From an uncultured Opitutales bacterium (GTDB lineage Bacteria; Verrucomicrobiota; Verrucomicrobiia; Opitutales; Intestinicryptomonadaceae): a stretch of 32,000 nt of DNA. The translations under genes and the position numbers were made by a program. The notes below the pieces were generated by a model. It did not search any database, was not told the DNA's origin, and saw only the letters and a program-made list of their open reading frames with translations. The stretch is taken from contig CAKUIA010000011.1 in assembly GCA_934660865.1 (NCBI GenBank), positions 30,001-62,000 on the forward strand, read 5' to 3'. This document shows positions 982 through 19,019 of this stretch, piece after piece (within the stretch, counting starts at the first letter, position 1; every line of letters begins with the position of its first letter).

Positions 982-1434
982 TTAAAAATTAACTTGAAAT
1001 TTTATCTTCTGAACGAGAATCATTACGGGTTCGTTTTCTGGCGAAGCGTCTTCCAACGGCTGAAACTGCGGAATGCTACCCTCGAAACGCTCGTTGTAAA
1101 TCGCGTGTACCACACACTCGAGCAAGTTGTCCGCATGGATTTCTACATCGTCTTTTTTTAAATCGTTTGTGGTAACGTTTTCCACTACGCTTACGGCTAT
1201 TAATCCATTTTCGGCCACTATCCCGACAACCCTGTCAGCGTAATCCTGCACCAAATACGGAGATACAACCACGGCAAGCCCGACGCGCGAAAGAGATTCT
1301 TCTATGTCGCTTGCGATGTCTCCTTTTAGGCGCGAAAATATCTGTATGTTTTCGTTCGGTAACACGGCGCGGATTTTTGCGACAATCCATTCCTGTAATT
1401 CGCGCGATTTCGATTTTTTAAAGTGATAGTCCAT
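982..1434 (-). CDS. hypothetical phage protein, head-tail joining / tail terminator-like by position
   Basis: 150 aa. Overlaps the upstream gpG-like gene by 17 nt and sits between that gene and the tail protein. I can name no motif. Confidence 0.6.
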   Translation of the reverse strand: MDYHFKKSKSRELQEWIVAKIRAVLPNENIQIFSRLKGDIASDIEESLSRVGLAVVVSPYLVQDYADRVVGIVAENGLIAVSVVENVTTNDLKKDDVEIHADNLLECVVHAIYNERFEGSIPQFQPLEDASPENEPVMILVQKIKFQVNF

Positions 1435-1975
1435 AGTACTGGTTTATGTATAGGTTTATTGTTTCGTTTGCGCCCTTGAGCATTTCGGCTTCGGTCGGGA
1501 ATTTGTCTTTATGCGGCTTAATTACCGCTTTCGGCGTAAGCAAATAGGCGATGCGTATTGCGGCTCCGTCTTTGTAGGCAAGATACCTTTTGCCCATCGC
1601 TCTGCGTTGTCCAAATGTAAAGAGCCTTTTGTAGGTAATTTCACGTGGGTTTCGCCCGAAGAATTCGGACTTAAGCGGTATAGCCAAGTTTTTGCCGTTT
1701 TTCGGACGAACGGTTCCGCCGTAATACTGCAACGCAACGCCGACTTTTTTTACGGCAACAGTTGCCGAAGAATCGGTATTCTTCTTGTAGATTGCTTGCG
1801 AAGCTTCCTGCCAAAAGCGTTTGCCGCCGTTCGAAACAAACTTGTCGCGTAAGTCAACTTCCATGCGTTTGGCAATTTTGCCCATCAATATACTGCGATT
1901 TTTACCCAAACATGAAAGCAATGTATCTAGGTGTTTGCGGGCGTTGTCATTCTGCGATATTGTGATTTTAAGCAT
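1418..1975 (-). CDS. virion morphogenesis / neck protein (Mu gpG or HK97 gp10-like)
   Basis: 185 aa. GGAGG Shine-Dalgarno 7 nt upstream of the ATG. The segment VGVALQYYGGTVRPKNGKNLAIPL resembles the conserved core of gpG/gp10-type tail-completion proteins. It follows the F-like gene, as G follows F in Mu. Confidence 0.6.
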   Translation of the reverse strand: MLKITISQNDNARKHLDTLLSCLGKNRSILMGKIAKRMEVDLRDKFVSNGGKRFWQEASQAIYKKNTDSSATVAVKKVGVALQYYGGTVRPKNGKNLAIPLKSEFFGRNPREITYKRLFTFGQRRAMGKRYLAYKDGAAIRIAYLLTPKAVIKPHKDKFPTEAEMLKGANETINLYINQYYGLSL

Positions 1976-2285
1976 TTAAATCCTCCGCTTTTAATTGGTT
2001 GACATTCCGAAAATTAGTCCGATGATTGGAAGTATGAAACTTGAAGGTGGATATGATTCGGTTGAAGAGCGCGACTTTTTTCAGTGGCTCAATGCCGAAT
2101 ATGCGCGTGTTCGCAACGATAAAAATATGCCGCAAGAAGAAAGTAGCGACCGCCGTAACGAGCTTACCGAACTCCACAGCATTTCGCAACCGAACAGACA
2201 CCCCGATACAATCCCGTATTTTGTGGAACGGTATGTTGCCCGCCTTAAAAGCGGCAGAAATTATTACAGCCAAAGACCTCTTCAT
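1968..2285 (-). CDS. hypothetical small basic protein (105 aa), candidate partner of the upstream toxin module
   Basis: Its ATG overlaps the upstream TGA (ATGA at 2285-2282). A GGAGGAA Shine-Dalgarno lies 7-8 nt upstream, inside the preceding gene. Its stop overlaps the next gene start by 8 nt. A codon-aligned antisense ORF (1995-2309 +) also stays open, so the strand call is not fully certain. Confidence 0.5.
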   Translation of the reverse strand: MKRSLAVIISAAFKAGNIPFHKIRDCIGVSVRLRNAVEFGKLVTAVATFFLRHIFIVANTRIFGIEPLKKVALFNRIISTFKFHTSNHRTNFRNVNQLKAEDLNA

Positions 2286-3622
2286 TGGACTTCCTCCACT
2301 GTTAAATAAAGCGTATCTCCGCGAACTTCATTTTTTAGGATTTTCATTTTTCCGCCTTTCGAGAATAGCACTTCCATTTCTTCAGCATTTGTATTGAAGT
2401 AGCGTTCTACTAGTTTGCCTATATATTTTGCGTTTCCGTGTTTTACTACGGTAATGAAAACCTTTGTCGGTCTTGTCATATATTTATCTAGCACCATTCC
2501 AGCGTCGGTTGAATACGACTCGAACGTTGCGCGCTCGAAATACCCCTTGTCAACCTGCTCCATAAAACTATAGTAAGCCTCTTTTTGTTTAGGATATTTT
2601 GTATTCCAGCTCATACCGCGATAAATTGGGGTATCGCTTTCCATAGGCAAAATGCGTTTTAGCAATCTGCCGAAATGGTATGCCTTATCGCTTGTCGTAT
2701 GGTGCTTTATGTAGTTGGAATTTTCCGACCATTCTGCAAGGGCGTCCCTTTGGTGGTATGGGCTTTTGCCGTCGCCGTAAAAATTTTCAGGCAAAGGCTT
2801 ATTTAAGACATCGACTATTTCAGTTGCCGAATACGGTTTTGTGCCGTTGGGATCCGTAAAAACAAGTTTGTCTCCGTCCCACTTTGCAAGGCCTTTCATT
2901 CTTTCGGATATATCCTTTTTTAAGGCGTCATTTGCTCCCGAAATTTCCGTTTCCAAATTTTCGTTCATAGACGGCAACTCCTGCGGTTGGGCAAAATGGT
3001 CGGCGTCAATAACACCCGATTCTACTGCTTCCTTTCTGGAGACATCGCGCAACCCCATGCCCGAGTTGAAATCGAACGGCGGATAAGGTTGCTTAAAGCG
3101 TGAAATTTCAGTCCAAATCGGCGAGTTTACTTCGGCAATCATTCTGCCATTGTATAGTTTCCCGCCTGCCGCCTGCCAACGGCTTGCCCAATCTCTCGGT
3201 TGGCGCGACTGCCTAATGCGAATAAGCTCGAAGCACGGATATAAATCGAGGTCTTCCTGCGCCTCTGCAAAACGTGCATAACCTTGCGCCATTTCCAAAT
3301 TAGTGCGCAAAATCAAATCTTGACGCCTAAAAGAATTCAAATCCTTAACGCTGCCTTTCGTACCATCGGCAGGTTTGTAGCCTGTAGAATCCAATGCGTG
3401 TTGTATTGCCAACCTTGCGTCCGACATGGATAACTTGCCTGCTGCATAGTCGTTGCAAGCCCTGTGCATTGCATTCACAACCTTTGCATTATTTACCGTT
3501 GCAGACCAAAACGCACGTTCGCGGATTTGATAATCAAGCTCCGCCATTTCCCGCGATGTCAAATTCGTGGGAACGTCTTGCTTGCGTTTTAAATACGCTT
3601 CGGCTGTATCGTCGTATGGCAT
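2282..3622 (-). CDS. MuF / SPP1 gp7-like minor head protein fused to a C-terminal ADP-ribosyltransferase-like (R-S-E) domain
   Basis: 446 aa. The central region RIRQSRQPRDW...PIWTEISRFKQPYPPFDFNSGMG resembles the MuF core. The C-terminal ~115 aa carry Y-R335-G (2618-2620), S371-T-D (2504-2512) and E415-M-E417 (2372-2380), spaced about 36 and 44 residues apart. Confidence 0.75.
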   Translation of the reverse strand: MPYDDTAEAYLKRKQDVPTNLTSREMAELDYQIRERAFWSATVNNAKVVNAMHRACNDYAAGKLSMSDARLAIQHALDSTGYKPADGTKGSVKDLNSFRRQDLILRTNLEMAQGYARFAEAQEDLDLYPCFELIRIRQSRQPRDWASRWQAAGGKLYNGRMIAEVNSPIWTEISRFKQPYPPFDFNSGMGLRDVSRKEAVESGVIDADHFAQPQELPSMNENLETEISGANDALKKDISERMKGLAKWDGDKLVFTDPNGTKPYSATEIVDVLNKPLPENFYGDGKSPYHQRDALAEWSENSNYIKHHTTSDKAYHFGRLLKRILPMESDTPIYRGMSWNTKYPKQKEAYYSFMEQVDKGYFERATFESYSTDAGMVLDKYMTRPTKVFITVVKHGNAKYIGKLVERYFNTNAEEMEVLFSKGGKMKILKNEVRGDTLYLTVEEVQ

Positions 3623-3632
3623 GGGTTAGGTT

Positions 3633-4085
3633 CTATAGGCCGTTAAAATCGCTTCGTTGCGGTACACCGCGTGCTGGACGCACAAGCACACAACCGCCCG
3701 AATTCTGTGTTGTTGGAGCGTTTTCGGGATTTTCAGGTATGGATACGGCAAAGTCTCCAGCGGCTATTTTGTCGAGCAACTCCAACGCCTTTAAATTGGC
3801 GGTTTTTTCGTCGTCTTTTAATTCTAGTGTTAAACGTGGTTTTGCTACGGCAACAATTAGCGCGAGGGCATCGCGTTCGAGTTCGGCTGGGATTTTCCCT
3901 GTATCCTTGTCGCACAAATATCCGCCTGCTTTTATTGCGCCGCGAATTTTTGTAACAACAATACGCACGGCATCGGGCAATGGGTTTTCTTGTCCCTCTG
4001 CGCGGGCTTTCGTTTTCATTGCATCGACAAGCTTCCCCGCTTGATAGGTTGCCAAATTAGATTCTGTAAGTGTTATCCAAGACAT
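3633..4085 (-). CDS. head-tail connector/adaptor protein (Mu gp36 / DUF1320-like)
   Basis: 150 aa. Has an N-terminal 'ITLTESNL' type start and a C-terminal NLKALELLDKIAAGDFAV segment typical of DUF1320/gp6-like connectors. Located in the head module. Confidence 0.55.
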   Translation of the reverse strand: MSWITLTESNLATYQAGKLVDAMKTKARAEGQENPLPDAVRIVVTKIRGAIKAGGYLCDKDTGKIPAELERDALALIVAVAKPRLTLELKDDEKTANLKALELLDKIAAGDFAVSIPENPENAPTTQNSGGCVLVRPARGVPQRSDFNGL

Positions 4086-4093
4086 AAATTATT

Positions 4094-4915
4094 TTAAGCT
4101 GCTTTACGCTGTATAGTTGGCGTTTTTACGGCGTTGAAATTGTTTTGCAAGGCACTTGCAAGGGCATCGCAAGCGACAATCATTTCGGACTTTTCGGGGC
4201 GTATTCTGTCGCCCGTGCCCGCCGAATATTTAAAGGGGATTTCCACCCTTGCAAAGTCTGCAAAGATTTTTCGACAAATGTCGGAGCCGTCGCAGGATAG
4301 CAACCACTTGCCTTTAATGGTATAAAGTTTGTTGCGCAAAATCTCCATATCTTCTGGCGAAAATGCGTCGTATGTGCCAGAATTGCCCGTGCAGTACGGC
4401 GGATCAAAATAAACAAATGCGTTTGCATTGTCGAAATACTCAACAACGTCGCGCCAGTCGCGCTGCTCGATATAAACGTTTTTTAGACGGTCGTGCAGCT
4501 CCTTTATCATTGGCACATGGCGGTTTTTGTCGAAACCTCGATAGCCGCGATTATCCCTTGCGTAGTAGTCGCCAAATCCCGAAAAGGACGAAACTTTAAG
4601 CAAATACCAGCGGGCAACCTTTTGTAGTTCGGTAAGCCCTTGTGCGTCGCGCAGGCGGTTGAAAATGTCCACCGAGTGCAAATACCATTCGAGCTCCGAC
4701 AACAACGCCTCCAAATGTTCGCGCACATATAGATAAAACCCCGACACATCGGCGTTAATGTCGTTTATAACCTCAACTTTAGCGCGTGGTTTTGCCAAAA
4801 ATACGGCAAGGCCGCCTGCAAAAGGCTCAATATAAGTGCTATGCTCGGGGATTACAGGCAGAATGTATTTCAACAATCTGCGTTTTCCACCAGAATATGT
4901 AAATACGGGATTCAT
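4094..4915 (-). CDS. dam: DNA N6-adenine methyltransferase, Dam / D12 class
   Basis: 273 aa. AdoMet motif EPFAGGLAVF near the N-terminus and catalytic DPPY (VYFDPPYCTG). N-terminal YSGGKRRLL is typical of Dam-family enzymes. Confidence 0.9.
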   Translation of the reverse strand: MNPVFTYSGGKRRLLKYILPVIPEHSTYIEPFAGGLAVFLAKPRAKVEVINDINADVSGFYLYVREHLEALLSELEWYLHSVDIFNRLRDAQGLTELQKVARWYLLKVSSFSGFGDYYARDNRGYRGFDKNRHVPMIKELHDRLKNVYIEQRDWRDVVEYFDNANAFVYFDPPYCTGNSGTYDAFSPEDMEILRNKLYTIKGKWLLSCDGSDICRKIFADFARVEIPFKYSAGTGDRIRPEKSEMIVACDALASALQNNFNAVKTPTIQRKAA

Positions 4916-4981: not shown

Positions 4982-5911
4982 TTAGGAGTTCGAGATGGAA
5001 AGGCCTTTGCAGGCGCCTACGCCAGTTTGCGCGAGCAACGAATAGTGTTCTACCGTTACAATGGTGCGCTTTGTCTTTTTCTCGACATAGACTTTAAAGC
5101 CTTCTTCGCCCACAAAACGCTTAAACGTCGAGGCGTCGAATTTGCTAATGCCGTCTTTGCCGCAGAATGCCAAAACGTAGTTTGCCAAAAACGCCTTGTA
5201 CTCTTTTGCTGCTTTGCCGTCGCTATCCTTTACCTTTGTTTCGAAGCGTTTGTCGCAGGTAAGGATTTTGTCTACGCCTACAAAACCGCGCAGGTTGTCC
5301 AACGTAAGCATTGCCTGCCCGCCAGCTGCAGTGTTTGTGGAGCCTAAAAGGCTTTCCATACGGCATGTCCATGCCCCAGCACCGATAAGCACACGGTTTG
5401 CGTTCAAGCCGCCTTTGTCACCTACCGAGGATATAAGTTTTCTTATGTCCAAATCGGGGTTTGTACCGCCGCCACTCTTCCAAGTTTTATTTTCGAGAGT
5501 GCCCGCTGCAGTTTTTGCCATTTCGATTGCGCGATTTAACTCGTTTGCAATAAGGCGGTTTTTAAGAATTCTCACGGCTTCCTGCTCGTAGTCGGCAAAA
5601 TACTCATCTTCGTCGATTGCCAAAGTAAGGCCGCGGTTTACAAGCTTTGCGTTTACAACGTCGCCGCCGATGTTGATTTCCTTAAAAGTGCCGCGCACCG
5701 CTCTGGAGTCGTCATCGTCGACCAACATTGTGCCGTCGCCGAATTTGTTGTACTCAAAGCGTTTTGCCGTCTTTACCTCGGGCGCAATAAACGCCAAAAG
5801 TTCCGCAGCGTCTTCGTCTATGGGCAACCCCGCGCAATAGCTGGACAAAGGTTGCGACAAATTTGCGGCATTGTAGGCGTCGCTGTTTGCAAATATGATT
5901 TTGTTTTTCAT
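4982..5911 (-). CDS. major capsid protein
   Basis: 309 aa. AAGGAAAA Shine-Dalgarno. Follows the decoration and protease-scaffold genes and is followed by a hairpin. Size and position are typical of HK97-fold capsid proteins; the sub-family is unresolved. Confidence 0.75.
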   Translation of the reverse strand: MKNKIIFANSDAYNAANLSQPLSSYCAGLPIDEDAAELLAFIAPEVKTAKRFEYNKFGDGTMLVDDDDSRAVRGTFKEINIGGDVVNAKLVNRGLTLAIDEDEYFADYEQEAVRILKNRLIANELNRAIEMAKTAAGTLENKTWKSGGGTNPDLDIRKLISSVGDKGGLNANRVLIGAGAWTCRMESLLGSTNTAAGGQAMLTLDNLRGFVGVDKILTCDKRFETKVKDSDGKAAKEYKAFLANYVLAFCGKDGISKFDASTFKRFVGEEGFKVYVEKKTKRTIVTVEHYSLLAQTGVGACKGLSISNS

Positions 5912-5940
5912 TCAGTTTTCCTTTTTTTGTGATTGTTTTG

Positions 5941-6354
5941 TTAGGCTGCGGCTATTGTGAGGCTTTGCGGACGCTGTCCGATGATTTCAACTAGGTCGCC
6001 TTTGCCGACCGATTTTGCAAGCGCAATGCCGACTAGCTGTACAGTTTGTGCGCTTGCGCCTTTTGCAGGCACTGCCTTTACGGCTCCGTCGGCCGCCAAG
6101 CATACAGCGGCACCTGCCGCAATTTCGCCGTCTGCAAGGGCAACTATTGTGCGGTTTGTAACGCCGAGCAGTTCAACGGCAACGTTGTCGCCCTGTTTTA
6201 CGCTATCCAGCAATACGCCGATTGCATCGGTATCGGTTGCGGCACACGCCTCAACTTTGTTGGCGTCGGCCGCAGTAAGTTTTACAACAGCCCCGCGCGG
6301 CAAATCCGCAGAGGCAATGCGTGTAATGTTGTTTATGTGTGTTCCTTCGTTCAT
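5941..6354 (-). CDS. head decoration / capsid cement protein (DUF2190-like)
   Basis: 137 aa, Ala/Gly/Val-rich and beta-rich (GDNVAVELLG, GDLVEIIG). Sits between the scaffold and capsid genes, as DUF2190 proteins typically do. Confidence 0.6.
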   Translation of the reverse strand: MNEGTHINNITRIASADLPRGAVVKLTAADANKVEACAATDTDAIGVLLDSVKQGDNVAVELLGVTNRTIVALADGEIAAGAAVCLAADGAVKAVPAKGASAQTVQLVGIALAKSVGKGDLVEIIGQRPQSLTIAAA

Positions 6355-6378
6355 GGTTATCCTTTGTTTTGGTTTAAA

Positions 6379-7554
6379 TTATTTCGTTTCGCCGAACGCG
6401 CCTTTGTATTTCTCGTTGGCTTCCTTCCAAGCCCTGTTGTAGGCTTCTTGGCCGCCGCCGTATTCGGCCGTTTTTGTTTTAACGTATTCGTCGAATTTTT
6501 GGCGCAGTTCGTTTTGTTTGTTTTCGGCTGCCGTTATACCGTCCGTTTTAGGCTCGGTTTTTACGACTTTGTCGGCGGCATTAAGCGCGGCTTCGTCTTT
6601 GTCGAAGTCGGCAGAGTTCGCCAAAATCATTTCAGCCGAGTTGCGCTGGAATTCCGCAAGTTTGCCGTCCTTAATTGCGTTGGCGACAACAAGCTTCGCT
6701 CTCGCGGTCTGTGATTTTTTCAGAGCCGCCTGCGAATTTGCCAATGCAACTTTTGCCGTTTCAAGCTGCTTGTCTTTCTCGGAGCCGTCTTTTTGTGCGA
6801 CCTCGAGGTTGTTGGCAATTTCGGTCTTTTTTGTTAGAGCGGTCTTTATACGCTCGAGCACGTCGGTAGGCGCATCGGCCGCTTTGTTGATTATCTTTTG
6901 CGCTGCTTCTTCGGAATAGCCCAAAAGTCTTAATATTTCCATGTCCATTATGATTGTTTCCTTTGTTTGAGTTTCGGAGTTTACGAAAGAGGTTTGTTTT
7001 ATATTCGGGGTACGCGTAAGCCCAATGGAGATTAGGCGGTTCGGGCGCGCAACTTTGTCGGCAATGTCAAAAGCGTTCCAGCGCGGGGAAATCTGCAGCC
7101 TTTGCGGCAACGTTTCAAAGCCGTTTAGCCATTCGATATTGGCGTAAATACCGTCATCTCCGTTTTCCAACGAAAGCACTTTGCCGTAGGGCGTCTTATC
7201 TGGTGTGTCGGGGATTACATAATCGTCTTCATCGTCCGGGTGCTCGTAATACACGGGGCACGCATTGCCGAATACGTTTTTTATACGACTCCAAATTGTG
7301 CCGAGATTGTTTTTTAAAATTTCACCCGCTGCACTGTCGACGCGCTGAATGTAGTCGCCTTTTTTAAAGTCGCCATAGGGGGCAATTAAATATTTTCCGT
7401 GTTTTTCGGTCGGTCGGTCGATTTCAATGCCGTTGCAAAACGTCAAAACACCGTTGCAAAAGCCGTTTGATTGCTTTTTCGATAATTTATCCGTCCTTGA
7501 GGCAAAAAGGCCTAAAATCGCCGAATTTTTGCTTTTCCTGTTTTCGCTATTCAT
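6379..7554 (-). CDS. prohead protease with C-terminal scaffold domain (Mu gpI-like)
   Basis: 391 aa. The N-terminal half (YLIAPYGDF..., ISPRWNAFD, ISIGLTRTPN) resembles the Mu I / S77 protease. The C-terminal 189 aa are Ala/Lys/Glu-rich and coiled-coil-like. An internal AAGGAAA Shine-Dalgarno plus ATG occurs at 6948. Confidence 0.75.
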   Translation of the reverse strand: MNSENRKSKNSAILGLFASRTDKLSKKQSNGFCNGVLTFCNGIEIDRPTEKHGKYLIAPYGDFKKGDYIQRVDSAAGEILKNNLGTIWSRIKNVFGNACPVYYEHPDDEDDYVIPDTPDKTPYGKVLSLENGDDGIYANIEWLNGFETLPQRLQISPRWNAFDIADKVARPNRLISIGLTRTPNIKQTSFVNSETQTKETIIMDMEILRLLGYSEEAAQKIINKAADAPTDVLERIKTALTKKTEIANNLEVAQKDGSEKDKQLETAKVALANSQAALKKSQTARAKLVVANAIKDGKLAEFQRNSAEMILANSADFDKDEAALNAADKVVKTEPKTDGITAAENKQNELRQKFDEYVKTKTAEYGGGQEAYNRAWKEANEKYKGAFGETK

Positions 7555-9037
7555 TTCCGATACTTTTCTTTAAAATCTTTTCCATTTCGGCGGCTTCATT
7601 TTCGCCGCCGTTAGACAGTTTCAAAATGTCGTCGTAAAGCTTTTGCATGGCGTCGGCATAATCGCCTGCGTCGGTAATTTTGCCGATTTCGTCGAGGCGT
7701 TTTATAAAAGGTGCAATATCTTTTCCTTTTGCCCTTGCAAGCTCGTCGAGCATTGCGTCGATTTCCGCTTCGGGTGACCGTGAATTTGCAAACGTAGGCA
7801 ACGACATTGGCGTTTGCGAAACTGCAGCAAGCTCTACAGTAGCCTCTCCATCTTCGGGTTCTCGTAGCTCTAAAGCCTCGTACACGTCGCGTTTTGACAC
7901 TTTGCAACCTAGCTCTGCAGCTCCCTTGTAAACGGCAAGCTGATTGAGTTTGTCTTTGCGGTTTTTGCGGGTAAGTTGCAAATATGCTGCAGGCTTTACC
8001 CCTTTGCCGAAACGCCACTGGAGTGCTGGCAGGCTTAGGTAATGTGCGATTGTTTCCTCTACAAGGGCGCAGTCGGCGTCTTCCAAGATTTCGCTTTCTT
8101 CGGCTTGCAAGCTTGCCCCAGTGTTGTTTTCGGCCGAAAGCGTGGACAAATCCGAACCGCGCCATATTAGCGCAATGTATCTATCCATCGCCTCCGACAA
8201 AGTTTTAAAAGGTTCGCTTGTGCCGTTGGGCAGTTTTAGGTCGAATGTTTCGCCGCTGGCACAAACAATACCGCAACCATTCATCAACCCTGAAATAGCC
8301 TCTACGGCGGATTCAAATTCTGGCGTATTGCGTTGCGCGGTTGTGGCATACACGGGCGTAGGCATTCCAAAACGTTGCGAGCAAACAGCCCAGTCGCCCT
8401 GCGCAAAACGCTTTACAATGTAACAAACGGCAGTAGCCTCCATTAATGCCGAATCGGCGACAGAAACCATCCACCCGTTTTTCTCCAGCGCAACACCTTC
8501 GGTAGCATAGCTGGATTTTTTAAAGCGCAGCACGCCGTCTATATTTTCGAAAAACCATAGAGGCACATAGCGCACTTCGGCCGAGAGGTTCGGAGCCTTT
8601 TCTGTGTGCCAGATAATTTCCGAAACGGCATATTTGTTTTCTAAAGCCGACAATATATTCTCTATCAACATTGACATAGAGCCATGCTTATTGGCGTCGG
8701 CCGCGCTCGATACCGTAATATTGTTGTAGAAATCCTCTAAAAATGCCGATTGCTCCGCGCTTGCATTGCCGTCGTCGCCCATTTCTACTATTGTCCATTC
8801 AAGGCGAGATGTGGCGCGTTTGCGTTTCTGCACGCATGCTTGTACAATGGCGTCTCTGCGGCGAATGGCGTCGTAGATTTTTGCGGCCTCGCTTAAATAG
8901 CCGCAATGGAAATCGTCCATAGCCTTTGTTATGCGCTTTGGATCGAGGTTTTGCAAGGGGTTATACCTTAGCCTTGCTTCCTCTTTTATGCGGGCTATGC
9001 CTATATGTTTTGTTTCGGTAATGTTGCTGTCTACCAT
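7547..9037 (-). CDS. portal protein (Mu gp29 / DUF935-like)
   Basis: 496 aa. Overlaps the TerL stop by 7 nt and the protease start by 8 nt. Size and order (TerL, portal, protease) match Mu-type head modules. Confidence 0.8.
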   Translation of the reverse strand: MVDSNITETKHIGIARIKEEARLRYNPLQNLDPKRITKAMDDFHCGYLSEAAKIYDAIRRRDAIVQACVQKRKRATSRLEWTIVEMGDDGNASAEQSAFLEDFYNNITVSSAADANKHGSMSMLIENILSALENKYAVSEIIWHTEKAPNLSAEVRYVPLWFFENIDGVLRFKKSSYATEGVALEKNGWMVSVADSALMEATAVCYIVKRFAQGDWAVCSQRFGMPTPVYATTAQRNTPEFESAVEAISGLMNGCGIVCASGETFDLKLPNGTSEPFKTLSEAMDRYIALIWRGSDLSTLSAENNTGASLQAEESEILEDADCALVEETIAHYLSLPALQWRFGKGVKPAAYLQLTRKNRKDKLNQLAVYKGAAELGCKVSKRDVYEALELREPEDGEATVELAAVSQTPMSLPTFANSRSPEAEIDAMLDELARAKGKDIAPFIKRLDEIGKITDAGDYADAMQKLYDDILKLSNGGENEAAEMEKILKKSIGNE

Positions 9038-10443
9038 ACAAATCTCCTAGATTGTTCTACTCTTACGGATTCTGCGAAAGACGGCGTTTGCGTGCCCGCA
9101 GCTTCCACTCCAAGCGCCATTGCCCAAAAGCGGTCGCAGTGGCCGTTTGCATTGCGAGCGGCATCGAAGCGAATTGAACCCGAAGCACCTACCGTCTTTT
9201 TAACACCGCGCAAATCCGCGCGTATTGTGTCGGTATCGGGTATGCGAATTGTGCTATCTTCGAATTCTGCGCGTAAAGGGTATGCCATTTTTTCTTTGCT
9301 CGATGCGGTAAATTGAATGCCCTCAACGCGGTATTTGCCGAATTTTTCGGCGGCGCGTTCGGCGAATTGTCGCCCAAGCCCAGTTTGGTCTATGCAACAC
9401 CTTCGCATTTTAGGTAAAGCCAGATACGGATATAAAACAGCCTCTTGTTCCGCAAACGTCATATTTTTAAGCGTTTCCACGCGTCGCGTAAAAAGCATGC
9501 CGCCGAGTTTTTCAAACACCCAAATTACGGTTAAGTCGTTATCGCGGCCTACGTCTACGCCAATATACAAATCTCCAGCGCAATTTTCTATGTCCGTTTC
9601 CCAAACTTCGCCGATTCTGTAAAAGCACCCCTCCGATACGTCGGGCGAAATAAACATACTCGTATCGTCGCAGGGTACGCACATATATTCCTGCAAAAAG
9701 CTTTCTCTGTCGGCGCACTTGCTTTTTACGTCGGCAAAGTATTCGGCTTCGTCCATATCCTGCCGAGGATCGTTGTCGGACAAGTTTTGCTGGAGCTTGA
9801 AAAGAAACCCGTCGTTTAAGGCGTCTTCCAGCGTAACTCTATGTAGCGAAATCTTTTTGGGATTGCCGCCGAACTTAGCCTCCATAACAAGTTTGTTAAA
9901 AAAATTGTCGGCTCCCCTGTGGGTTGAAATTATCGCCATTTGCCCGCCCCAGGTTATACCAGGGTATGCAATGGCGTAGAGCTTTACTGGATCGGGGTGC
10001 AGGGCAAATTCGTCTAAAACACGGGTGCCGCGCTTGCCTGCCTGTGCGTCGGCGTTTGAACTCATCGAATGTATAGCAACGCCGTTGTAAAATTTTAGGT
10101 CGAAAGAGGTATAAGGCTTGCCACCTATGTCGGTGTAAATATTTTGCCCGGCAACGGCCTCGACCATTTTTTTGTAGCCGTCTGCAAAGCTCTTGCAATC
10201 CTGCAAAAATAGGCGAGCTTGCATTTCGTCGCGCGAACTTACCCAAAAATCGTATTTTGCGTCCGAACGTATTGCTTGCGCTACAAGGTCGTTTGAAGTT
10301 GCCCATGAAAAGCCTACCTGTCGGGATTTTTCTACAAGCTTTATGCGCGAACGGTCTTCGCACCAACGCACCTGATACGGCAAAAACGCCGCTTTAGGGT
10401 TTTTCGGTACGCATTTCGCCTTTACTGTCTTTAAGCCGTCCAT
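9031..10443 (-). CDS. terminase large subunit (Mu gp28-type)
   Basis: 470 aa. N-terminal ATPase with the deviant Walker A region KSRQVGFSW and Walker B RVLDEFA. The C-terminal nuclease-like half carries acidic motifs (IGVDVGRDNDLT). Confidence 0.9.
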   Translation of the reverse strand: MDGLKTVKAKCVPKNPKAAFLPYQVRWCEDRSRIKLVEKSRQVGFSWATSNDLVAQAIRSDAKYDFWVSSRDEMQARLFLQDCKSFADGYKKMVEAVAGQNIYTDIGGKPYTSFDLKFYNGVAIHSMSSNADAQAGKRGTRVLDEFALHPDPVKLYAIAYPGITWGGQMAIISTHRGADNFFNKLVMEAKFGGNPKKISLHRVTLEDALNDGFLFKLQQNLSDNDPRQDMDEAEYFADVKSKCADRESFLQEYMCVPCDDTSMFISPDVSEGCFYRIGEVWETDIENCAGDLYIGVDVGRDNDLTVIWVFEKLGGMLFTRRVETLKNMTFAEQEAVLYPYLALPKMRRCCIDQTGLGRQFAERAAEKFGKYRVEGIQFTASSKEKMAYPLRAEFEDSTIRIPDTDTIRADLRGVKKTVGASGSIRFDAARNANGHCDRFWAMALGVEAAGTQTPSFAESVRVEQSRRFVW

Positions 10444-12362: not shown

Positions 12363-13064
12363 TTATTTCTTTCCTTTGGTTTTTGGTGAAATGCTTTTTG
12401 TGGACACAATACACGAAGTTCTGCCGTTTTTGGTCTTTATGCGCTGGGCTACTGCTTGTTTTTCAAGCCCCGAAGTTAATGCTGTTAGCCTTTCTGCTAC
12501 GTCTGCCATAAGCGCAGACATTGCGGAAAATTCGTTGTACAAAGGCTCAAATTCGGCCGAAAATACTTTGCCGATTTCGTCGGCAATCTTTGCCGCGATG
12601 GTGTCGGAGCGGGATAACCCCGACTCCGACGGGGCGACACAAACAGATTCGCCCGTGTGGCTAGTAGGCAAAGTTTGACGCCCCACAACTGGGGCGGACG
12701 CTTTTTGTTTTGCACCGCTTGTCATCGCGGATTTTGCAAGGACGCCGTCTGCGTCAGCTGCGCCCCGTCTTTCAACAACAGAATATGATTGAAATTCATT
12801 GCGAATGCTTTTCAGCAACTCTTCATTCGCCAAAAAGGTTTGTCCGCCAACGGTAAATTCGCATGCGCCGTTTACAATGGCGGCATTAAGTTCCTCAACC
12901 AAGTTGGCGAGCTTATAAACGGAAATCGAACAAGTTTTCGGCGAATAGCCAAACACCCAAACTTTAAACGAAACATAGTCGGGGTTAATACGGCTTACAT
13001 TAAAAGCGTAGGCCTCGCCGAGATTGGCGGTTTTTAATTGACTGTTTACAGAGCCGTGTTTCAT
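12363..13064 (-). CDS. hypothetical protein, first gene of the late operon
   Basis: 233 aa. AGGAG Shine-Dalgarno 7 nt upstream of the ATG. No recognisable motif. Lys-rich C-terminus (KSISPKTKGKK). Confidence 0.65.
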   Translation of the reverse strand: MKHGSVNSQLKTANLGEAYAFNVSRINPDYVSFKVWVFGYSPKTCSISVYKLANLVEELNAAIVNGACEFTVGGQTFLANEELLKSIRNEFQSYSVVERRGAADADGVLAKSAMTSGAKQKASAPVVGRQTLPTSHTGESVCVAPSESGLSRSDTIAAKIADEIGKVFSAEFEPLYNEFSAMSALMADVAERLTALTSGLEKQAVAQRIKTKNGRTSCIVSTKSISPKTKGKK

Positions 13065-13163
13065 AACGGCTCCTACAATATCATAAGCCCAAAACTAAGT
13101 CAAAACGCGGGCTTACAGCGTTAACGTCCATTACTAAAAAAGTTTTTATTTTTGTGTGTTTAG

Positions 13164-13199
13164 AAAAAAAGGGGCTATCTATATCGAAATGATAGCCCC
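13164..13199 (-). terminator. rho-independent terminator closing the repressor / 109-aa ORF unit
   Basis: Perfect 9-bp stem GGGGCTATC / GATAGCCCC (13171-13179 and 13191-13199) with an 11-nt loop. On the minus strand it is followed directly by TTTTTTT (plus-strand A-run 13164-13170). Confidence 0.8.
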
Positions 13200-13217
13200 C
13201 GAGAAGAGTTTTTTTAT

Positions 13218-13547
13218 TTAATCAAAAAACTCAACTTCAGCAAATCCTTCACAAGCAAATCCATCATACGGGTTCATATTTATATCATATACGTTTGAAA
13301 CCATATACTTTTTCACTTGAAACAGACCTAATGGTAACGAAGATGCCAATTCTTTGGATGGAACTTCACCGCTATCCCCATTCCGAAACAATAGCCATTT
13401 TATTAGGTATTTATTGCCTACCTTTTTTGAGCCTGTGATATCTACTTTTATATACACTTTACATACACCCCCTTTCTCTATACATCGTGTACTGGGTGTA
13501 ACACGGATTATAGAGAAATGTAAAGATTTTATTTTAGAATTTTCCAA
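13218..13547 (-). CDS. hypothetical beta-rich 109-aa protein (accessory 'moron' candidate)
   Basis: 109 stop-free codons in a visibly AT-rich stretch, followed 19 nt later by a strong terminator. The only available start is TTG at 13547 and no Shine-Dalgarno is seen, which lowers confidence. Confidence 0.5.
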   Translation of the reverse strand: MENSKIKSLHFSIIRVTPSTRCIEKGGVCKVYIKVDITGSKKVGNKYLIKWLLFRNGDSGEVPSKELASSLPLGLFQVKKYMVSNVYDINMNPYDGFACEGFAEVEFFD

Positions 13548-13576
13548 TCGTTGGAAATTTCAAGTGTTGATTATTA
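13540..13576. repeat. 37-bp direct repeat, copy A, containing the inverted repeat TTCCAA-N3-TTGGAA
   Basis: TTTTCCAATCGTTGGAAATTTCAAGTGTTGATTATTA. 32 of 37 positions match copy B. Overlaps the TTG start of the 109-aa ORF. A perfect minus-strand TATAAT lies at 13578-13573. Confidence 0.85.
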
Positions 13577-13693
13577 TATAGTTGCGTGTTTATGCGTTAA
13601 AGTTTTAACAGGCCATTTAAATTTTTTTATAAAAACTTGTAGCCCAGCTTTCATAGCATTTATTTTCTTTTCCTGTTTTAGTGCAGATACCAC

Positions 13694-13730
13694 TTTTCCA
13701 ATCGTTGGAATTTTCGGATATTGATTATTA
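13694..13730. repeat. 37-bp direct repeat, copy B
   Basis: TTTTCCAATCGTTGGAATTTTCGGATATTGATTATTA, 154 bp from copy A. The first 17 nt are identical to copy A. Confidence 0.85.
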
Positions 13731-13819
13731 GCAAATTACAAAATTTAGTGTTAATATTTTTCGGAAGCGCATATTGTTCTCTTATGGCATAAAAACATCG
13801 TTGCACGCTACATTTTAAA

Positions 13820-14194
13820 TTAAAAATTTTTATTGTTTAGAATCTTTTCTATATTTGTAAGTCTCTTATCAAACATTGTCGCAAATTCGGAAAACGACTC
13901 CGTTATTTCATTTCTTAGTTGAACAAGTTTTTCGAAGTCATCTCTGACTTTGTCTACAGGCTTATTCACTGGAACAAGCTGAGTATCAGTATTAAAATCG
14001 TCATTAAGCAAATATTCATCACTTACGCCCAATATTGCTGCTATACGTTTTATTTTAGATATGCTAGGGACGACTTTTCCCGTCATCCAGTTACTTACAG
14101 TTTTCTGTCCAACACCGAGTCGTTCCGCTGCTCGTGTTTGGTTTAATCCGTTTTCGTAACATAAATTTTGGAATTTTTCTGCGAATTTAGCCAT
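13820..14194 (-). CDS. c-type immunity repressor, XRE-family HTH
   Basis: 124 aa. HTH segment LNQTRAAERLGVGQKTVSNWMTGK and a helical C-terminal half. No S24 peptidase domain. Divergent from the early operon, as Mu c is. Confidence 0.8.
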   Translation of the reverse strand: MAKFAEKFQNLCYENGLNQTRAAERLGVGQKTVSNWMTGKVVPSISKIKRIAAILGVSDEYLLNDDFNTDTQLVPVNKPVDKVRDDFEKLVQLRNEITESFSEFATMFDKRLTNIEKILNNKNF

Positions 14195-14260
14195 AATAGT
14201 AAAAATATTACTAAAATATTGTTGACAATTTAGTATTTTTAGTAATTTTATGACTACATA
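14195..14260. promoter_or_regulatory. divergent promoter/operator region between the repressor and the early operon
   Basis: TAGTAA-N5-TTACTA inverted repeat (14197-14213). TTAGTA (14230-14235) and TTAGTAA (14239-14245) form direct half-sites. A consensus -35 TTGACA (14222-14227) faces the early genes. Confidence 0.65.
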
Positions 14261-14503
14261 ATGAACGCAACCGAAATAAAACGCAACATAAAACGTGGTA
14301 GACCTAAAGGTGCTACTGTAAAATTTCCAGGGGTTGTAGAAGATGCAAAAATACTTGGGGTAAACAGAATTACCCTTTATCGCACGCTTATAGGTGCCCC
14401 TGGGTTTAGCGGATTGAAAACGCTTCGTCGTCGTTACGACGAGCTGCTTAAGCGAAAACCACGCGAATTACGCGACTATATCAATGCAAATAAGGCGTGG
14501 TAA
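14261..14503 (+). CDS. Ner/Cro-like HTH DNA-binding protein
   Basis: 80 aa. HTH segment EDAKILGVNRITLYRTLIG. First gene of the early operon. Confidence 0.7.
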   Translation: MNATEIKRNIKRGRPKGATVKFPGVVEDAKILGVNRITLYRTLIGAPGFSGLKTLRRRYDELLKRKPRELRDYINANKAW

Positions 14504-14715
14504 TGGAAACTTTTTTTAAAAGCAAAATTCTGTCCAACAAAATTTCATATCGGCAATGTGCATTAGCAATGGGCATTCCTTCTGGCGCTCCACAATACAT
14601 TTCTGCCGTTGCTAACGGCAAACGTAATCCAAGTCGCAAATGGCGTATGAAATTTTTGCAGGCTATGCAAAAAATCGAGTTAGGAGAAATTAAATTCCCT
14701 AAAAAACGCCTCTAA
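14503..14715 (+). CDS. second Ner-like HTH protein
   Basis: I prefer the ATG at 14503, which overlaps the upstream TAA (TAATG), over the GTG at 14497. HTH segment ISYRQCALAMGIPSGAPQYISAVANGKRNPS. Confidence 0.65.
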   Translation: METFFKSKILSNKISYRQCALAMGIPSGAPQYISAVANGKRNPSRKWRMKFLQAMQKIELGEIKFPKKRL

Positions 14716-15819: not shown

Positions 15820-17895
15820 ATGGATACGTCGCTTTCTTCGGCACAAAGCTTTCTACCAAAGCCATTCGGCATTGCAAACCACGAACAACTTGCATTCGTG
15901 CGGCTTGGTCGCCGTGAACAGGTTCGCATTATAGACCTGCTTGCGGCATTCAAGACGATAGCAACCTTCAATGGCAAAAAGGGAGAAGCTTTTGCGTCGG
16001 TTGCGGCGTGCAACGGCGGAAGATTGGGCTTTTCACAAAAAAGTCTAGAACGCCTTTATTATAAATACATAAAAAGTCATTACGATTGGACTGTACTTGC
16101 ACATAATTGGCGCGGTAACAAACCTGGACAACCAAAAGAATTTTTGGATTTTCTAGGCAAACTCGTTTGCGAATGCAACGGTAGAACTGACGTTATAGGC
16201 GGTGTTTGTGATAGGCTATTTAACGAATTTTGGGCAGCTGGAAAAGACGTTCCTGGTTATGGTACATTTAAAGCGTTTTGGGATAAAACAAATCCAGACA
16301 AACCGTATCCATCACGCATACGCCCAAGACAACCGTTTGTGCCACAAGGGTGGTCGCGCGGAAATATAAGCAAGCTTATTTGTAAAATTGCGCCAAAAAA
16401 CGGAGCTTTGCGCCTTAGGGCTGCACACGGTGAACTTAGGGCACATAATGCCGAAGCCCAAGTGCGCAGAGATATGTCAAAGCTAAAACCCATGCAACTA
16501 GTTACAATGGACGACGTTGAGCTTGACATTCAAGTTATGTTTAAAATCGGGCCTCACATGCGAATGCGTACAGCACAAGCCATCGTTGCGATGGACGTTG
16601 CCACAAGAATGATTATCGGTTGGGGTGTACGTCCGATTTTGACCAAAGACGACAAACCGTATATGTCCGAAACAGACACCAAAGTATTAAGTCGCAAAGA
16701 GGTTAATACGGTTTTACTCAATACTATCTTAATGCACGGATTGCCCGCAAATTATCCAATGCGTCTATTGTTGGAAAATAATTCCGCACGTTTAAATCGA
16801 ACCGACGAAAATATGCTTTTTGCAATGTTGCCTGGACGTTTTGTTATAGAAAACACCCGAATGGCCGACCGTGAATACCTAAATAGTGGTTTTAAAGATT
16901 CTCACGGGTTCCCTTTTCAAAAAGGCTGGTTGGAAAGCGGTTTTAAACCAATGCACATAAAACTATGCCACTTACCTGGGGCGACCGCACCTAGGTTCGA
17001 CGATAGGCACAGCGTACACGAGGCCGTTACCGAATATTGCGAAAAACTCGAAAGACTAGCTGTTACGAAGAATATTGATCCTACAAAACTAAAATACCCC
17101 GTTCTTACAGAAAACGAATTTTTCGTTGTTTTCGAAAGGCTTGTTGCAATGTTCAACAATCGAACAAACCATAAGCTGCAAGGTTTTGATACTGTTTACG
17201 AATGCTTACTTCCGAACGGCGAATATTGCCGTCGGGAAGATTTGCCCAATAACCTTTCGGCTGAAGAATTGTCGAAACTTTCATTTGAGTGCCGTCCCGA
17301 AAGTCCATTTGAACGTTGGACAAGACTTCGTTCACAAAACGAATTTACAAAAGTTCCGACTGCCGCTTTATATCCCTGCCTATGCGATAAACGTACAGTG
17401 AAAATCCGCAACGGCGAAATCAAAATGGAAATTGCCGCATTTAGTCGGGAACCGCTTTATTTTCGCTCTCAAAATCTTCGTCAATTCGAGGGTAAAGAAT
17501 TCATCGCTGCATTTACCCCAGACCATAAAACGGCTTGGTTGTTCGGCAAAGATGAAGGCTTCATTTGCGAGGTTCCAAGAATCGACTATGTAGACATAAC
17601 AAATCAAAACGAAATCATACGTCAAAGCGGAATAGTCTTTAGAGACAGACAAATAGAAAATGAAAAACTGGCTCAATTTCATTCTGATAGGGATAACCTC
17701 TATAAGGAAATCCGCGTTCACAACCAAAATATTTTAAACGGCAATATAGCGGTGGGCACCGCAATGAAACTCGAGAAAGAAAACGCTGCCATTGACACGA
17801 CAAAGAAAAAAAAGGCACAAGCAAAGGCAAATTCAGCCCGCAGAGCCGCCATAGCCGCAGCCGCAAGAGCCGTCGATAACTCCGAAGAATTTTAA
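15820..17895 (+). CDS. Mu-type DDE transposase (MuA-like)
   Basis: 691 aa. Several segments run parallel to the MuA sequence as I recall it: AMDVATRMIIGWGV (MuA WQDVKTRKILGW), HGLPANYPMRLLLENNSA (MuA YGIPEDFHITIDNTRGA), VAMFNNRTNH (MuA VAMFNARTGR) and EGFICEVP (MuA GRFICEAE). Confidence 0.9.
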   Translation: MDTSLSSAQSFLPKPFGIANHEQLAFVRLGRREQVRIIDLLAAFKTIATFNGKKGEAFASVAACNGGRLGFSQKSLERLYYKYIKSHYDWTVLAHNWRGNKPGQPKEFLDFLGKLVCECNGRTDVIGGVCDRLFNEFWAAGKDVPGYGTFKAFWDKTNPDKPYPSRIRPRQPFVPQGWSRGNISKLICKIAPKNGALRLRAAHGELRAHNAEAQVRRDMSKLKPMQLVTMDDVELDIQVMFKIGPHMRMRTAQAIVAMDVATRMIIGWGVRPILTKDDKPYMSETDTKVLSRKEVNTVLLNTILMHGLPANYPMRLLLENNSARLNRTDENMLFAMLPGRFVIENTRMADREYLNSGFKDSHGFPFQKGWLESGFKPMHIKLCHLPGATAPRFDDRHSVHEAVTEYCEKLERLAVTKNIDPTKLKYPVLTENEFFVVFERLVAMFNNRTNHKLQGFDTVYECLLPNGEYCRREDLPNNLSAEELSKLSFECRPESPFERWTRLRSQNEFTKVPTAALYPCLCDKRTVKIRNGEIKMEIAAFSREPLYFRSQNLRQFEGKEFIAAFTPDHKTAWLFGKDEGFICEVPRIDYVDITNQNEIIRQSGIVFRDRQIENEKLAQFHSDRDNLYKEIRVHNQNILNGNIAVGTAMKLEKENAAIDTTKKKKAQAKANSARRAAIAAAARAVDNSEEF

Positions 17896-17915: not shown

Positions 17916-19019
17916 ATGAAAAACATAGAAGAAATCAAAAACGCCATAAAAGACTATCCTGCCGAGGCACAAGGCTATGTACTAACGCTTGCCGAGTTTT
18001 GCAATACACATTGCGACGGCTCCGAACAGCGCATTGCCGCACAATTCAACGGCAAGTTTCACTACTCTAAAGACTGGTTTTACCAGCTCTTTTCTGGACG
18101 CCGCTACAATAAAAAGCTTGGCAAGTTTCAAGTTGACATGGAAAAGCTTGCCGAAATCGCCAGCGATGCAAAAAGCATAACCGAAGGAGGCACGATAGGC
18201 GACGCAATTCCGCATGTTGAAACGGAAACAGTCCGCGAAATCAGAGACGCAATAGACTCCATACGCCCAGAAACAAACGTATGCAAATGGCTTATGGTAT
18301 GCGGCACTACGGGAGCACAAAAAACCTACGCCGCGCGTTTTTATGCGTTAACGCACCCCGACGTTTACTATCTCGAAAGTCCGACGGTACCGAGCATTTG
18401 CGAATTGTCTATGATTATAGGCGAGGTTATTCCGACCTGCAGGGCTGATTACTCGGGCGCGAGACTCCGCCGCGAAATCATCAAAAACGTAAAACCCCGC
18501 AACTGCTTTATCTTCGACAATGCACAGCGTATGTACGATCCGAAGAAAAAGCTAAATCAACCGCTCTTTGGCTTTTTACAGGCTTTGCAAGACGCAACAA
18601 AGTGCTCGATTGTACTGATTTTTGTGGACGAAGCGACTGGTGAAAACTCCCTGCGCCGCGTAGTATTCGGTAAAGACGCGGGCTACTTCGAACAACTTGT
18701 AGGCCGTGCGGGTGGCGAAGAGTCGATTTTGTTTTTGCCCGATAGGCCTAGTGACTCCGATTTAAACGCATTTGCAAAGGCAACGGGCTTTCGTGACGTA
18801 GCACAACGCAAGGCAATGTTGCCTATAATGCGCAAGTTGGCATCGCAAAAAGGTAGGCTAAGGGTTGTTTTAAACGCGCTTCAACAGGCGGCACGCCTTG
18901 CGATAGCGGCTAAGCGAGAAATTACCACCGACGATTTTTTCAACGTAATTCCCGAAAATGACATAGCCATTTTAAAAACCATAGATAGCGTCAGAAAGGC
19001 TCTTCCATGCAACGCATAA
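17916..19019 (+). CDS. MuB-like AAA+ transposition target-capture protein
   Basis: 367 aa, immediately downstream of the transposase. P-loop-like GTTGAQKT (18303-18326) and Walker-B-like CFIFDNAQ (D201-N202 at 18516-18521). Confidence 0.75.
   Translation: MKNIEEIKNAIKDYPAEAQGYVLTLAEFCNTHCDGSEQRIAAQFNGKFHYSKDWFYQLFSGRRYNKKLGKFQVDMEKLAEIASDAKSITEGGTIGDAIPHVETETVREIRDAIDSIRPETNVCKWLMVCGTTGAQKTYAARFYALTHPDVYYLESPTVPSICELSMIIGEVIPTCRADYSGARLRREIIKNVKPRNCFIFDNAQRMYDPKKKLNQPLFGFLQALQDATKCSIVLIFVDEATGENSLRRVVFGKDAGYFEQLVGRAGGEESILFLPDRPSDSDLNAFAKATGFRDVAQRKAMLPIMRKLASQKGRLRVVLNALQQAARLAIAAKREITTDDFFNVIPENDIAILKTIDSVRKALPCNA

Follow-up and report, generated by a model that had tools for sequence, protein, structure and literature searches.

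We describe here a prophage gene found in a 32,000-nucleotide (nt) stretch of DNA from an uncultured Opitutales bacterium (GenBank assembly GCA_934660865.1, contig CAKUIA010000011.1, positions 30,001 to 62,000 of the forward strand). This whole stretch is called the window in the following, and positions refer to it unless another locus is named. The gene encodes a protein of 446 amino acids (aa) that joins a divergent MuF-type head module to a predicted ADP-ribosyltransferase (ART) domain. A small gene on the opposite strand, convergent with it, most likely specifies the corresponding binding-type immunity protein. A preliminary description of the same DNA, made from the letters of the sequence, had read the large protein as a MuF-like virion protein ending in an R-S-E-type ART toxin module. 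We have followed up this reading by means of homology searches, profile alignments, structure predictions and a comparison of related loci. The features on which the analysis is built are the following, with the basis of each assignment in brackets.

2282–3622, minus strand: complete MuF-ART gene, 446 aa, with the stop codon at 2282–2284 (list of open reading frames and translation).
2837–3622, minus strand: divergent MuF (phage head morphogenesis) module, residues 1 to about 262 (hhalign, BFVD folds, phrog_220).
3053–3088, minus strand: PYPPFDFNSGMG, residues 179–190, counterpart of the MuF 'PP..N-C-R-C' signature (aligned with YPPNGWNCRCRV of Mu F).
2285–2836, minus strand: predicted C3/VIP2-like R-S-E ART domain, residues from about 263 to 446 (PF03496, Foldseek, conservation).
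2618–2620, minus strand: catalytic Arg335 of the Y-R-G motif, strand beta-1 (invariant; strand 333–339 in the model).
2510–2518, minus strand: S369-Y370-S371, the true S-x-S/T ('STS') motif (S369 invariant; strand 369–371 in the model).
2372–2380, minus strand: E415-M416-E417, the [E/Q]-x-E motif of the substrate-recognition (ARTT) loop, at the start of a beta-strand (E417 invariant; strand 417–420 in the model).
2034–2309, plus strand: convergent small gene for a candidate immunity protein, 91 aa from ATG 2034 (104 aa if from TTG 1995).
1968–2285, minus strand: 105-aa shadow open reading frame on the same strand as the toxin gene, overlapping its stop codon; not a gene.
1418–1975, minus strand: F0 gene, conserved, 185 aa, phrog_6367 (function unknown), found immediately behind the MuF gene in relatives that lack a toxin.

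The open reading frame (ORF) at 2282–3622 is real, as judged from the ORF list and the translation, and the two stretches that had been quoted for its MuF-like core, RIRQSRQPRDW and PYPPFDFNSGMG, are both found in the product. The codons that had been assigned to the three ART motifs are also positioned correctly, with R335 of Y334-R335-G336 at 2618–2620, S371-T372-D373 at 2504–2512 and E415-M416-E417 at 2372–2380. A search of 5.8 billion proteins returned 246 homologues of the 446-aa protein, with identities from 97 down to 29%. In a scan of species-representative genomes, the relatives were found to be almost all from Verrucomicrobiota (Opitutales, Akkermansiaceae, Verrucomicrobiaceae and Kiritimatiellia), the closest matches being two uncultured Opitutales metagenome-assembled genomes (MAGs) with 77% identity. 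At two of the related loci the gene is broken into two ORFs, namely L008 (1051–2085 plus the next ORF; products of 344 and 117 aa) and L089 (4255–5595; 344 and 94 aa). Either a frameshift or assembly error or a natural inactivation of the toxin could account for these split genes.

The N-terminal module is a divergent MuF domain without the Cys-Arg-Cys signature. Using an alignment of 45 members of the N-terminal family as the hhalign query, the match to phage Mu gp30 (F) has a probability of 96.5% and an E-value of 7.5e-10 over 252 columns, covering Mu F residues 8–277. In this alignment, PYPPFDFNSGMG stands opposite HYPPNGWNCRCRV of Mu F. P182, F183, S187 and M189 are invariant across the 45 members, and of the MuF PP-x(3)-N-C-R-C signature the P-P and the N are retained, with Cys-Arg-Cys replaced by Ser-Gly-Met. 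At the sequence level, the PHROGs family phrog_220 ('minor head protein and DNA pilot') matches residues 8–149 with an E-value of 6.7e-6.

Structure prediction gives the same picture. The AlphaFold2 (AF2) model of residues 1–262 has a predicted local distance difference test score (pLDDT) of 91.4. When compared with the viral structures in BFVD, it gives a best E-value of 2.4e-4 and TM-scores up to 0.54, and the named matches are nearly all described as 'phage head morphogenesis domain', 'GpF-like', 'MuF-like minor capsid' or 'minor capsid protein'. A Foldseek search of the PDB with this model returned nothing under E 0.48, and no solved MuF-like structure was found there. By tblastn against 50,697 phage records, the module is weakly matched in three Akkermansia phages, two of which carry the annotation 'head morphogenesis'; it also exists alone, as proteins of 255–285 aa. 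The MuF/SPP1-gp7-like core of the preliminary description is thus borne out by the homology to Mu gp30, the fold matches and phrog_220. In Mu and SPP1, a MuF-type domain positions the protein at the portal within the capsid.

Judged from its sequence and its modelled structure, the C-terminal domain is a C3/VIP2-class R-S-E ART with intact catalytic residues. Pfam PF03496 (ADPrib_exo_Tox) matches residues 326–435. With the C-terminal 205 aa alone the score is 23.7 bits, against a curated cut-off of 23.4 bits; the whole protein gives a borderline 21.9 bits. The same model is also matched by 10 of 30 homologues, with a best E-value of 8.9e-6. In an alignment of 30 full-length relatives (29–84% identity), R335, S369 and E417 are the same in every sequence, and G336 in nearly all. 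The R-S-E triad is intact in 85 of 106 ART-type tails, and in these 85 domains position 334 is Y, W or F (82 cases), position 370 is W, Y or F (81 cases), position 371 is always S or T, and position 415 has E (73 cases), D (8), Q (3) or N (1). The motif of the family can thus be written as [YWF]-R-G ... S-[WYF]-[ST] ... [EDQ]-x-E.

The AF2 model of the ART domain, calculated on the family alignment, has a mean pLDDT of 87.9. Foldseek gives 79 PDB matches at E<=1e-3, and 50 of the 50 matches listed are C3/VIP2-class ARTs. These include Vis, C3bot1/2, C3lim, Plx2a, C3larvin, Certhrax and Tre1 (6dre/6drh), and furthermore the Listeria ART-ARH toxin, iota, CDTa, C2-I and BECa. For Vis, C3bot, Tre1, Plx2a, Certhrax and iota/CDTa, the E-values lie between 5e-7 and 1e-5 over about 180 columns. 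The model has the two parts of the ART fold, a helical N-terminal subdomain and a split beta-sandwich. The ordered Arg, S-x-S/T and [E/Q]-x-E motifs fall on strands 1, 2 and 5, which is the canonical layout of this fold. Together with PF03496 at threshold and the invariant triad, the fold of the AlphaFold model supports the R-S-E ART module that had been proposed. Its location at the C-terminus stands as well, but not the size of about 115 residues. The domain extends over some 185 residues (263–446, including an N-terminal helical part), because the Foldseek alignments span about 170–190 columns, with about 180 aligned to toxins of 200–215 aa; homology at the sequence level covers query positions 1–184 of the domain (phmmer).

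Like the domain length, the middle motif needs a minor correction. It had been read as an unusual S-T-D at S371-T372-D373, which is a register error of two residues, and this triplet is ruled out as the STS motif: T372 and D373 are unconserved, and the alignment with the Vis toxin points to the conserved S369-Y370-S371 instead. That alignment stems from a profile search against the PDB and pairs S369 with the first Ser of the Vis S-T-S, and E-x-E-VLF with the Vis E-A-E-VLF. It should be pointed out that the weak Vis match, with an E-value of 0.11, was the only one given by the single-sequence and profile searches of PDB sequences.

The ART subfamily is narrow: a phmmer search of 1.84 billion proteins, at single-sequence sensitivity, yielded 22 representatives with E<=1e-3. 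All 22 matches are C-terminal in proteins of about 280–590 aa or are shorter fragments, and the domain was not seen among them in other toxin-delivery families. In tblastn searches of the 50,697 phage records, no similarity was found to sequenced phage ARTs, including Alt and Mod. Full-length proteins that keep the ART-like domain and have lost the triad (e.g. K/A/A) were also observed: L016 (Akkermansia muciniphila MAG), L028, L033, L034, L039 (Akkermansia sp.), L020/P0068 (Luteolibacter).

The same N-terminal module carries alternative C-termini in relatives of the protein. Clustering the tails of 202 N-module proteins, taken from the protein hits and from 80 genomic loci, gave the following distribution.

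ART: 106 of 202.
Tail of about 160 aa, PBECR3-like: 29 of 202 (one member matches PBECR3, E 9.8e-6).
PBECR2-like: 9 of 202 (weak PBECR2 matches).
PBECR1: 2 of 202 (37.4 bits, above threshold).
HExxH (Akkermansia phage Chambord): 1 of 202.
Other singleton tails: 2 of 202.
No tail: 53 of 202.

This clustering upholds the framing of the protein as a MuF polymorphic toxin, and we conclude that it belongs to the class of MuF polymorphic toxins and head-packaged effectors. The tails are effector domains known before on MuF proteins, and the architecture is the one set out by Jamet et al. (2017) and Iyer et al. (2017, 2022). The tail of about 160 aa, the 29 carriers of which include loci L019, L021, L031, L053, L060 and L072, is probably a divergent PBECR-type RNase family; Pfam PBECR3 is reached by 1 of 15 members, and a motif resembling H..F...PL..GD.EL.P..WR.PD.V is conserved. 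Exchange is not confined to whole tails. Between the window and L083, the MuF module is 86% identical and the ART core 37%, which indicates that recombination occurs inside the ART class too. In the Akkermansia phage Chambord (ON453894; locus L001), the gene at 5884–7557, annotated 'head morphogenesis', encodes the same divergent MuF module with a 277-aa tail, in which a zinc-peptidase-like HEIGH motif and a weak match to LPD1 are found. This tail is another effector variant, present in an isolated phage.

Downstream of the toxin gene, and overlapping its 3′ end by 28 nt, lies the convergent small gene at 2034–2309. Comparison of the DNA and proteins of related loci indicates that this gene is real. 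At the four closest loci, the product of the plus-strand 104-aa ORF (1995–2309) is far better conserved than that of the minus-strand ORF. In the aligned DNA, the variation follows the codon-position order 3>1>2 in the plus-strand frame only, and the approximate ratio of nonsynonymous to synonymous substitutions (dN/dS) is 0.19–0.26 in that frame versus 0.5–0.66 in the opposite one. In related contigs, it is the opposite-strand gene that independent gene callers have annotated, and it overlaps the 446-aa gene by 28 nt in every case. By comparison with the homologues, the start is likely ATG 2034, which gives a product of 91 aa. A profile search found 89 clusters of proteins of 90–104 aa belonging to this family, none of them with a Pfam domain; for the small protein, neither Pfam nor NCBIfam nor PHROGs gave a domain.

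We have also considered the 105-aa ORF at 1968–2285 on the minus strand as the immunity gene, and it is ruled out by the codon-position variation, the dN/dS values and the gene callers elsewhere. Being open in all four of the closest loci, this ORF can mislead annotation, and one gene caller chose it in L085. Scanning for a promoter of the small gene gave a TTGACA-16-GATGAT at 1999–2026, but the number of such sites equals the shuffle expectation, and we give it no weight. The possibility that F0 is a homologue of Mu gpG found no support, with an hhalign probability of 0.6%.

The small gene goes together with a catalytically intact ART. The F0 family was found downstream in 43 loci; of the 15 loci that have the N-module only, 11 have it immediately next to the MuF gene. 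In all 13 of the loci with an intact, uninterrupted ART gene, there is a gap of 118–622 nt before the next conserved gene, and an antisense small ORF is present in every gap examined behind such a gene. In the two loci where a full-length ART with a decayed triad is followed by F0, L016 and L028, there is neither a gap nor a small convergent gene. This suggests that toxin and antidote decayed together there, or that the ART-like domain was turned to structural use. Furthermore, at eight loci, and with the overlap-encoded residues excluded, the identity of the small protein is correlated with that of the ART core (Spearman rho 0.65, Mantel p 0.004) and not with that of the MuF module (rho 0.16, p 0.29). 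From these sequence comparisons, we consider it most likely that the small gene encodes a binding-type immunity protein.

The gene lies in a Mu-like prophage in a Verrucomicrobiota chromosome, in agreement with the temperate-phage setting assumed in the preliminary description. The head and packaging genes, the repressor, the MuB-like and Gam genes and the host flank all point to this. The relevant genes in the window are listed here.

9031–10443, minus strand: large terminase.
7547–9037, minus strand: Mu-type portal.
6379–7554, minus strand: 391-aa protease/scaffold-like protein.
5941–6354, minus strand: cement protein.
4982–5911, minus strand: major head protein.
4094–4915, minus strand: Dam-type (D12-class) DNA adenine methyltransferase, between the major head and gp36-like genes.
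3633–4085, minus strand: gp36-like protein.
13820–14194, minus strand: HTH_3/CI-like repressor.
15820–17895, plus strand: 691-aa ORF directly upstream of the MuB-like ATPase, in the position of the MuA transposase; no Pfam match.
17916–19019, plus strand: MuB-like ATPase.
19452–19967, plus strand: Gam.

The 691-aa ORF may be a very divergent DDE transposase. Host housekeeping genes begin near 21.3 kb, and the prophage–chromosome junction lies near 21.0–21.3 kb; the genes past it encode a cupin, a PabB-like chorismate-binding enzyme, an FAD oxidoreductase, an RluA-type pseudouridine synthase, UbiE, a ClpX/HslU-like AAA ATPase, HU and HisRS. The early genes thus adjoin one end of the prophage, with the late genes pointing the other way, an arrangement that differs from Mu. 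The GC content drops to 0.33–0.39 at 13000–14700, which is the divergent regulatory region between the late (minus-strand) and the early (plus-strand) blocks.

Taken together, we read the protein as a two-module MuF-ART virion protein of a Mu-like temperate phage, which would be packaged in the head, use NAD+ and be provided with an antidote by the small gene. We estimate the probability of this reading at roughly 0.8. The mechanism that we infer covers how the protein is packaged and injected, its enzymatic activity and acceptor residue, and the function of the immunity protein. In it, the fusion would be made late in infection alongside the head proteins, packaged into the capsid by its MuF module, and would leave the capsid together with the DNA. 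The ART domain would then use NAD+ to modify a target in the bacterial cytoplasm by mono-ADP-ribosylation. The E-x-E form of the ART motif is linked to arginine acceptors, and because this motif is found here, the acceptor is probably an arginine. The product of the convergent gene, of about 91 aa, would protect the lysogen or the producer cell.

We can go one step further and propose that 2034–2309 founds an undescribed family of ART-immunity proteins, transcribed antisense to the late operon and thus expressed in the lysogen whether or not the toxin is made. Prophages of Verrucomicrobiota from the gut and the environment, relatives of Akkermansia among them, would then carry a toxin delivered by the virion and an antidote expressed in the lysogen, as a pair for kin discrimination or superinfection. 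This proposal is a tentative one, with the odds somewhat against it.

There are several observations that weigh against the two-module toxin reading. The alignment with Mu gp30 shows the Cys-Arg-Cys signature of MuF to be absent from the N-terminal module, and no curated MuF model matches, neither in NCBIfam nor in Pfam. PF04233 was searched with the protein and 30 homologues, and the Phage_Mu_F match that the preliminary description had named as a check on the core is thus missing. The gene follows the gp36-like gene and is not beside the portal gene as in Mu. As to the chemistry, a protein with the ART fold and an intact triad may act as an NAD+ glycohydrolase instead of a transferase. The candidate immunity gene is convergent, not co-directional as is usual, and has no known domain. 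Its co-variation with the ART core could reflect mere physical linkage, and the samples are small. Finally, the Pfam scan revealed no ADP-ribosylhydrolase or macro-domain partner among the 30 larger ORFs scanned, nor in the small gene.

The best-surviving alternative is that the protein is an Alt-like effector for host takeover or anti-defence. It would modify RNA polymerase, translation factors or defence proteins, and would thereby favour the incoming phage or bias the choice between lysis and lysogeny, without being a lethal inter-strain toxin. In that case, one would expect the small convergent gene to have a regulatory role or to be a moron unrelated to the ART. In favour of this alternative, the domain has the fold class of Alt/VIP2, head packaging of an ART via MuF has been proposed for polyvalent and MuF effectors (PMC5512222, PMC9503650), and low-toxicity ARTs may, according to Jamet et al. 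(PMC5576092), steer the lysis–lysogeny choice. However, the link of the small gene is to catalytically intact ARTs alone, and its divergence goes with that of the ART core, as expected of a toxin–immunity pair, and the tblastn searches connect the ART domain to no sequenced phage ART. We regard the Alt-like function as rather unlikely.

Another option is a released fitness factor of the Bxa type, which would be freed when the induced prophage lyses the cell and would act on neighbouring bacteria or on animal cells without being injected from the capsid. Bxa of Bacteroides stercoris is indeed encoded by a gut prophage, has the same MuF-ART architecture and shows epithelial and antibacterial action (PMC11699363), and some relatives of the present protein come from MAGs named Akkermansia, Akkermansiaceae and Opitutales. 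On the other hand, there is no signal peptide, no sign of an uptake module and no BAH-like ARH1-type hydrolase nearby, and we find this option improbable. That the C-terminal domain is mainly structural (head-internal or portal-associated), with its ART chemistry dispensable or vestigial, is very improbable here because the triad and its flanking aromatics are intact and are kept by 85 of 106 relatives, at identities as low as about 30%, although it is plausible for the decayed Akkermansia and Luteolibacter homologues, which keep the full-length domain without the R-S-E triad, and Mu gp30 itself has an inactive PBECR domain (PMC5512222).

Returning to the toxin reading, it is important to note that the fusion of MuF to an ART is in itself not new, as the preliminary description might have implied (PMC5576092, PMC9503650, PMC11699363). 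MuF modules fused to Alt/VIP2-type ARTs are well documented (PMC3482391, PMC5576092, PMC5512222, PMC9503650), and Alt/VIP2-family ARTs are often found in this arrangement (Iyer et al. 2022, PMC9503650). ARTs make up 14% of 191 MuF toxins, among them the EFV toxin of an Enterococcus faecalis V583 prophage (Jamet et al. 2017, PMC5576092). EFV (PMC5576092) and Bxa (PMC11699363) are MuF-ARTs that have been tested experimentally. The MuF polymorphic toxins of Jamet et al. (2017, PMC5576092) and Zhang et al. (2012, PMC3482391) likewise consist of a MuF module and a variable C-terminal toxin, and belong to temperate phages or prophages; a small neighbouring ORF serves them as putative immunity gene. 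The MuF module described here differs in being too divergent for Pfam and in having no Cys-Arg-Cys, and whereas the small ORF of those systems is downstream on the same strand, the candidate described here is convergent and overlaps the 3′ end of the toxin gene. Verrucomicrobiota are mentioned nowhere in Jamet et al. 2017 (PMC5576092), and no description of MuF-ART toxins in this phylum was found in the literature searched.

Compared by description, the Bxa system is also close, with a MuF-ART in the prophage of a gut bacterium and an N-module that occurs on other toxins. Bxa is neutralised by the small binding protein Bsi and by the ARH1-type hydrolase BAH (Alexei et al. 2024, PMC11699363). 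Bsi is small and non-enzymatic, and its counterpart here would be the candidate small protein of a domain-less family; no ARH1-type hydrolase, on the other hand, was found here in the ORFs scanned with Pfam. C3-like, VIP2 and iota-type ARTs share the fold and the ordered aromatic-R-G, S-x-S/T and E/Q-x-E motifs with our domain (TM-scores normalised to the target of 0.5–0.6), but the identity is just 10–18% and S-Y-S has an aromatic in place of Thr. Those toxins are delivered by secretion or by a type VI secretion system, whereas delivery by a phage head module is proposed here. With T4 Alt and the polyvalent-protein ARTs (PMC5512222, PMC9503650), the shared concept is that of a capsid-carried ART delivered with the DNA. 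T4 Alt relies on a capsid-targeting sequence in a virulent phage, in contrast to the packaging via MuF in a temperate phage that we propose. Phage Mu gp30 (F) and SPP1 gp7, finally, have a homologous N-terminal domain and are minor head proteins, and the head module is of Mu type with a Mu-type portal. Mu F retains N-C-R-C, is encoded beside the portal gene and ends in an inactive PBECR domain (Iyer et al. 2017, PMC5512222), none of which applies here.

The locus is thus distinguished by a MuF module that curated models do not recognise, by the narrowness of its ART subfamily, by its Verrucomicrobiota hosts and by a candidate antidote gene that is convergent with the toxin gene and overlaps it. 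Fusions of MuF to ARTs form an established class of which few members have been studied (EFV, Bxa). The present locus brings prophages of Verrucomicrobiota into the class, together with a form of MuF that escapes curated models. It can also serve as a compact test system, with an intact ART, a linked candidate antidote on the opposite strand, divergent pairs (window type versus L083 type) and decayed versions. Lineages such as L016 and L028, with the triad decayed and the small gene lost, constitute natural 'knock-outs'. If the antidote role is true, this would show that immunity to a phage-borne toxin can be wired to lysogenic, not late, expression. There is also a lesson for annotation, in that the obvious same-strand 'immunity' ORF is the shadow of a real gene.

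One further observation concerns the DNA methyltransferase gene at 4094–4915. In the related prophages L086 and L088, its site is just a gap of about 280–295 nt. The methylase is absent from L083 as well, where an opposite-strand gene for a 118-aa 23S_rRNA_IVP four-helix-bundle protein is located just upstream of the toxin gene. This stretch of the head module looks like a hot spot for moron insertion.

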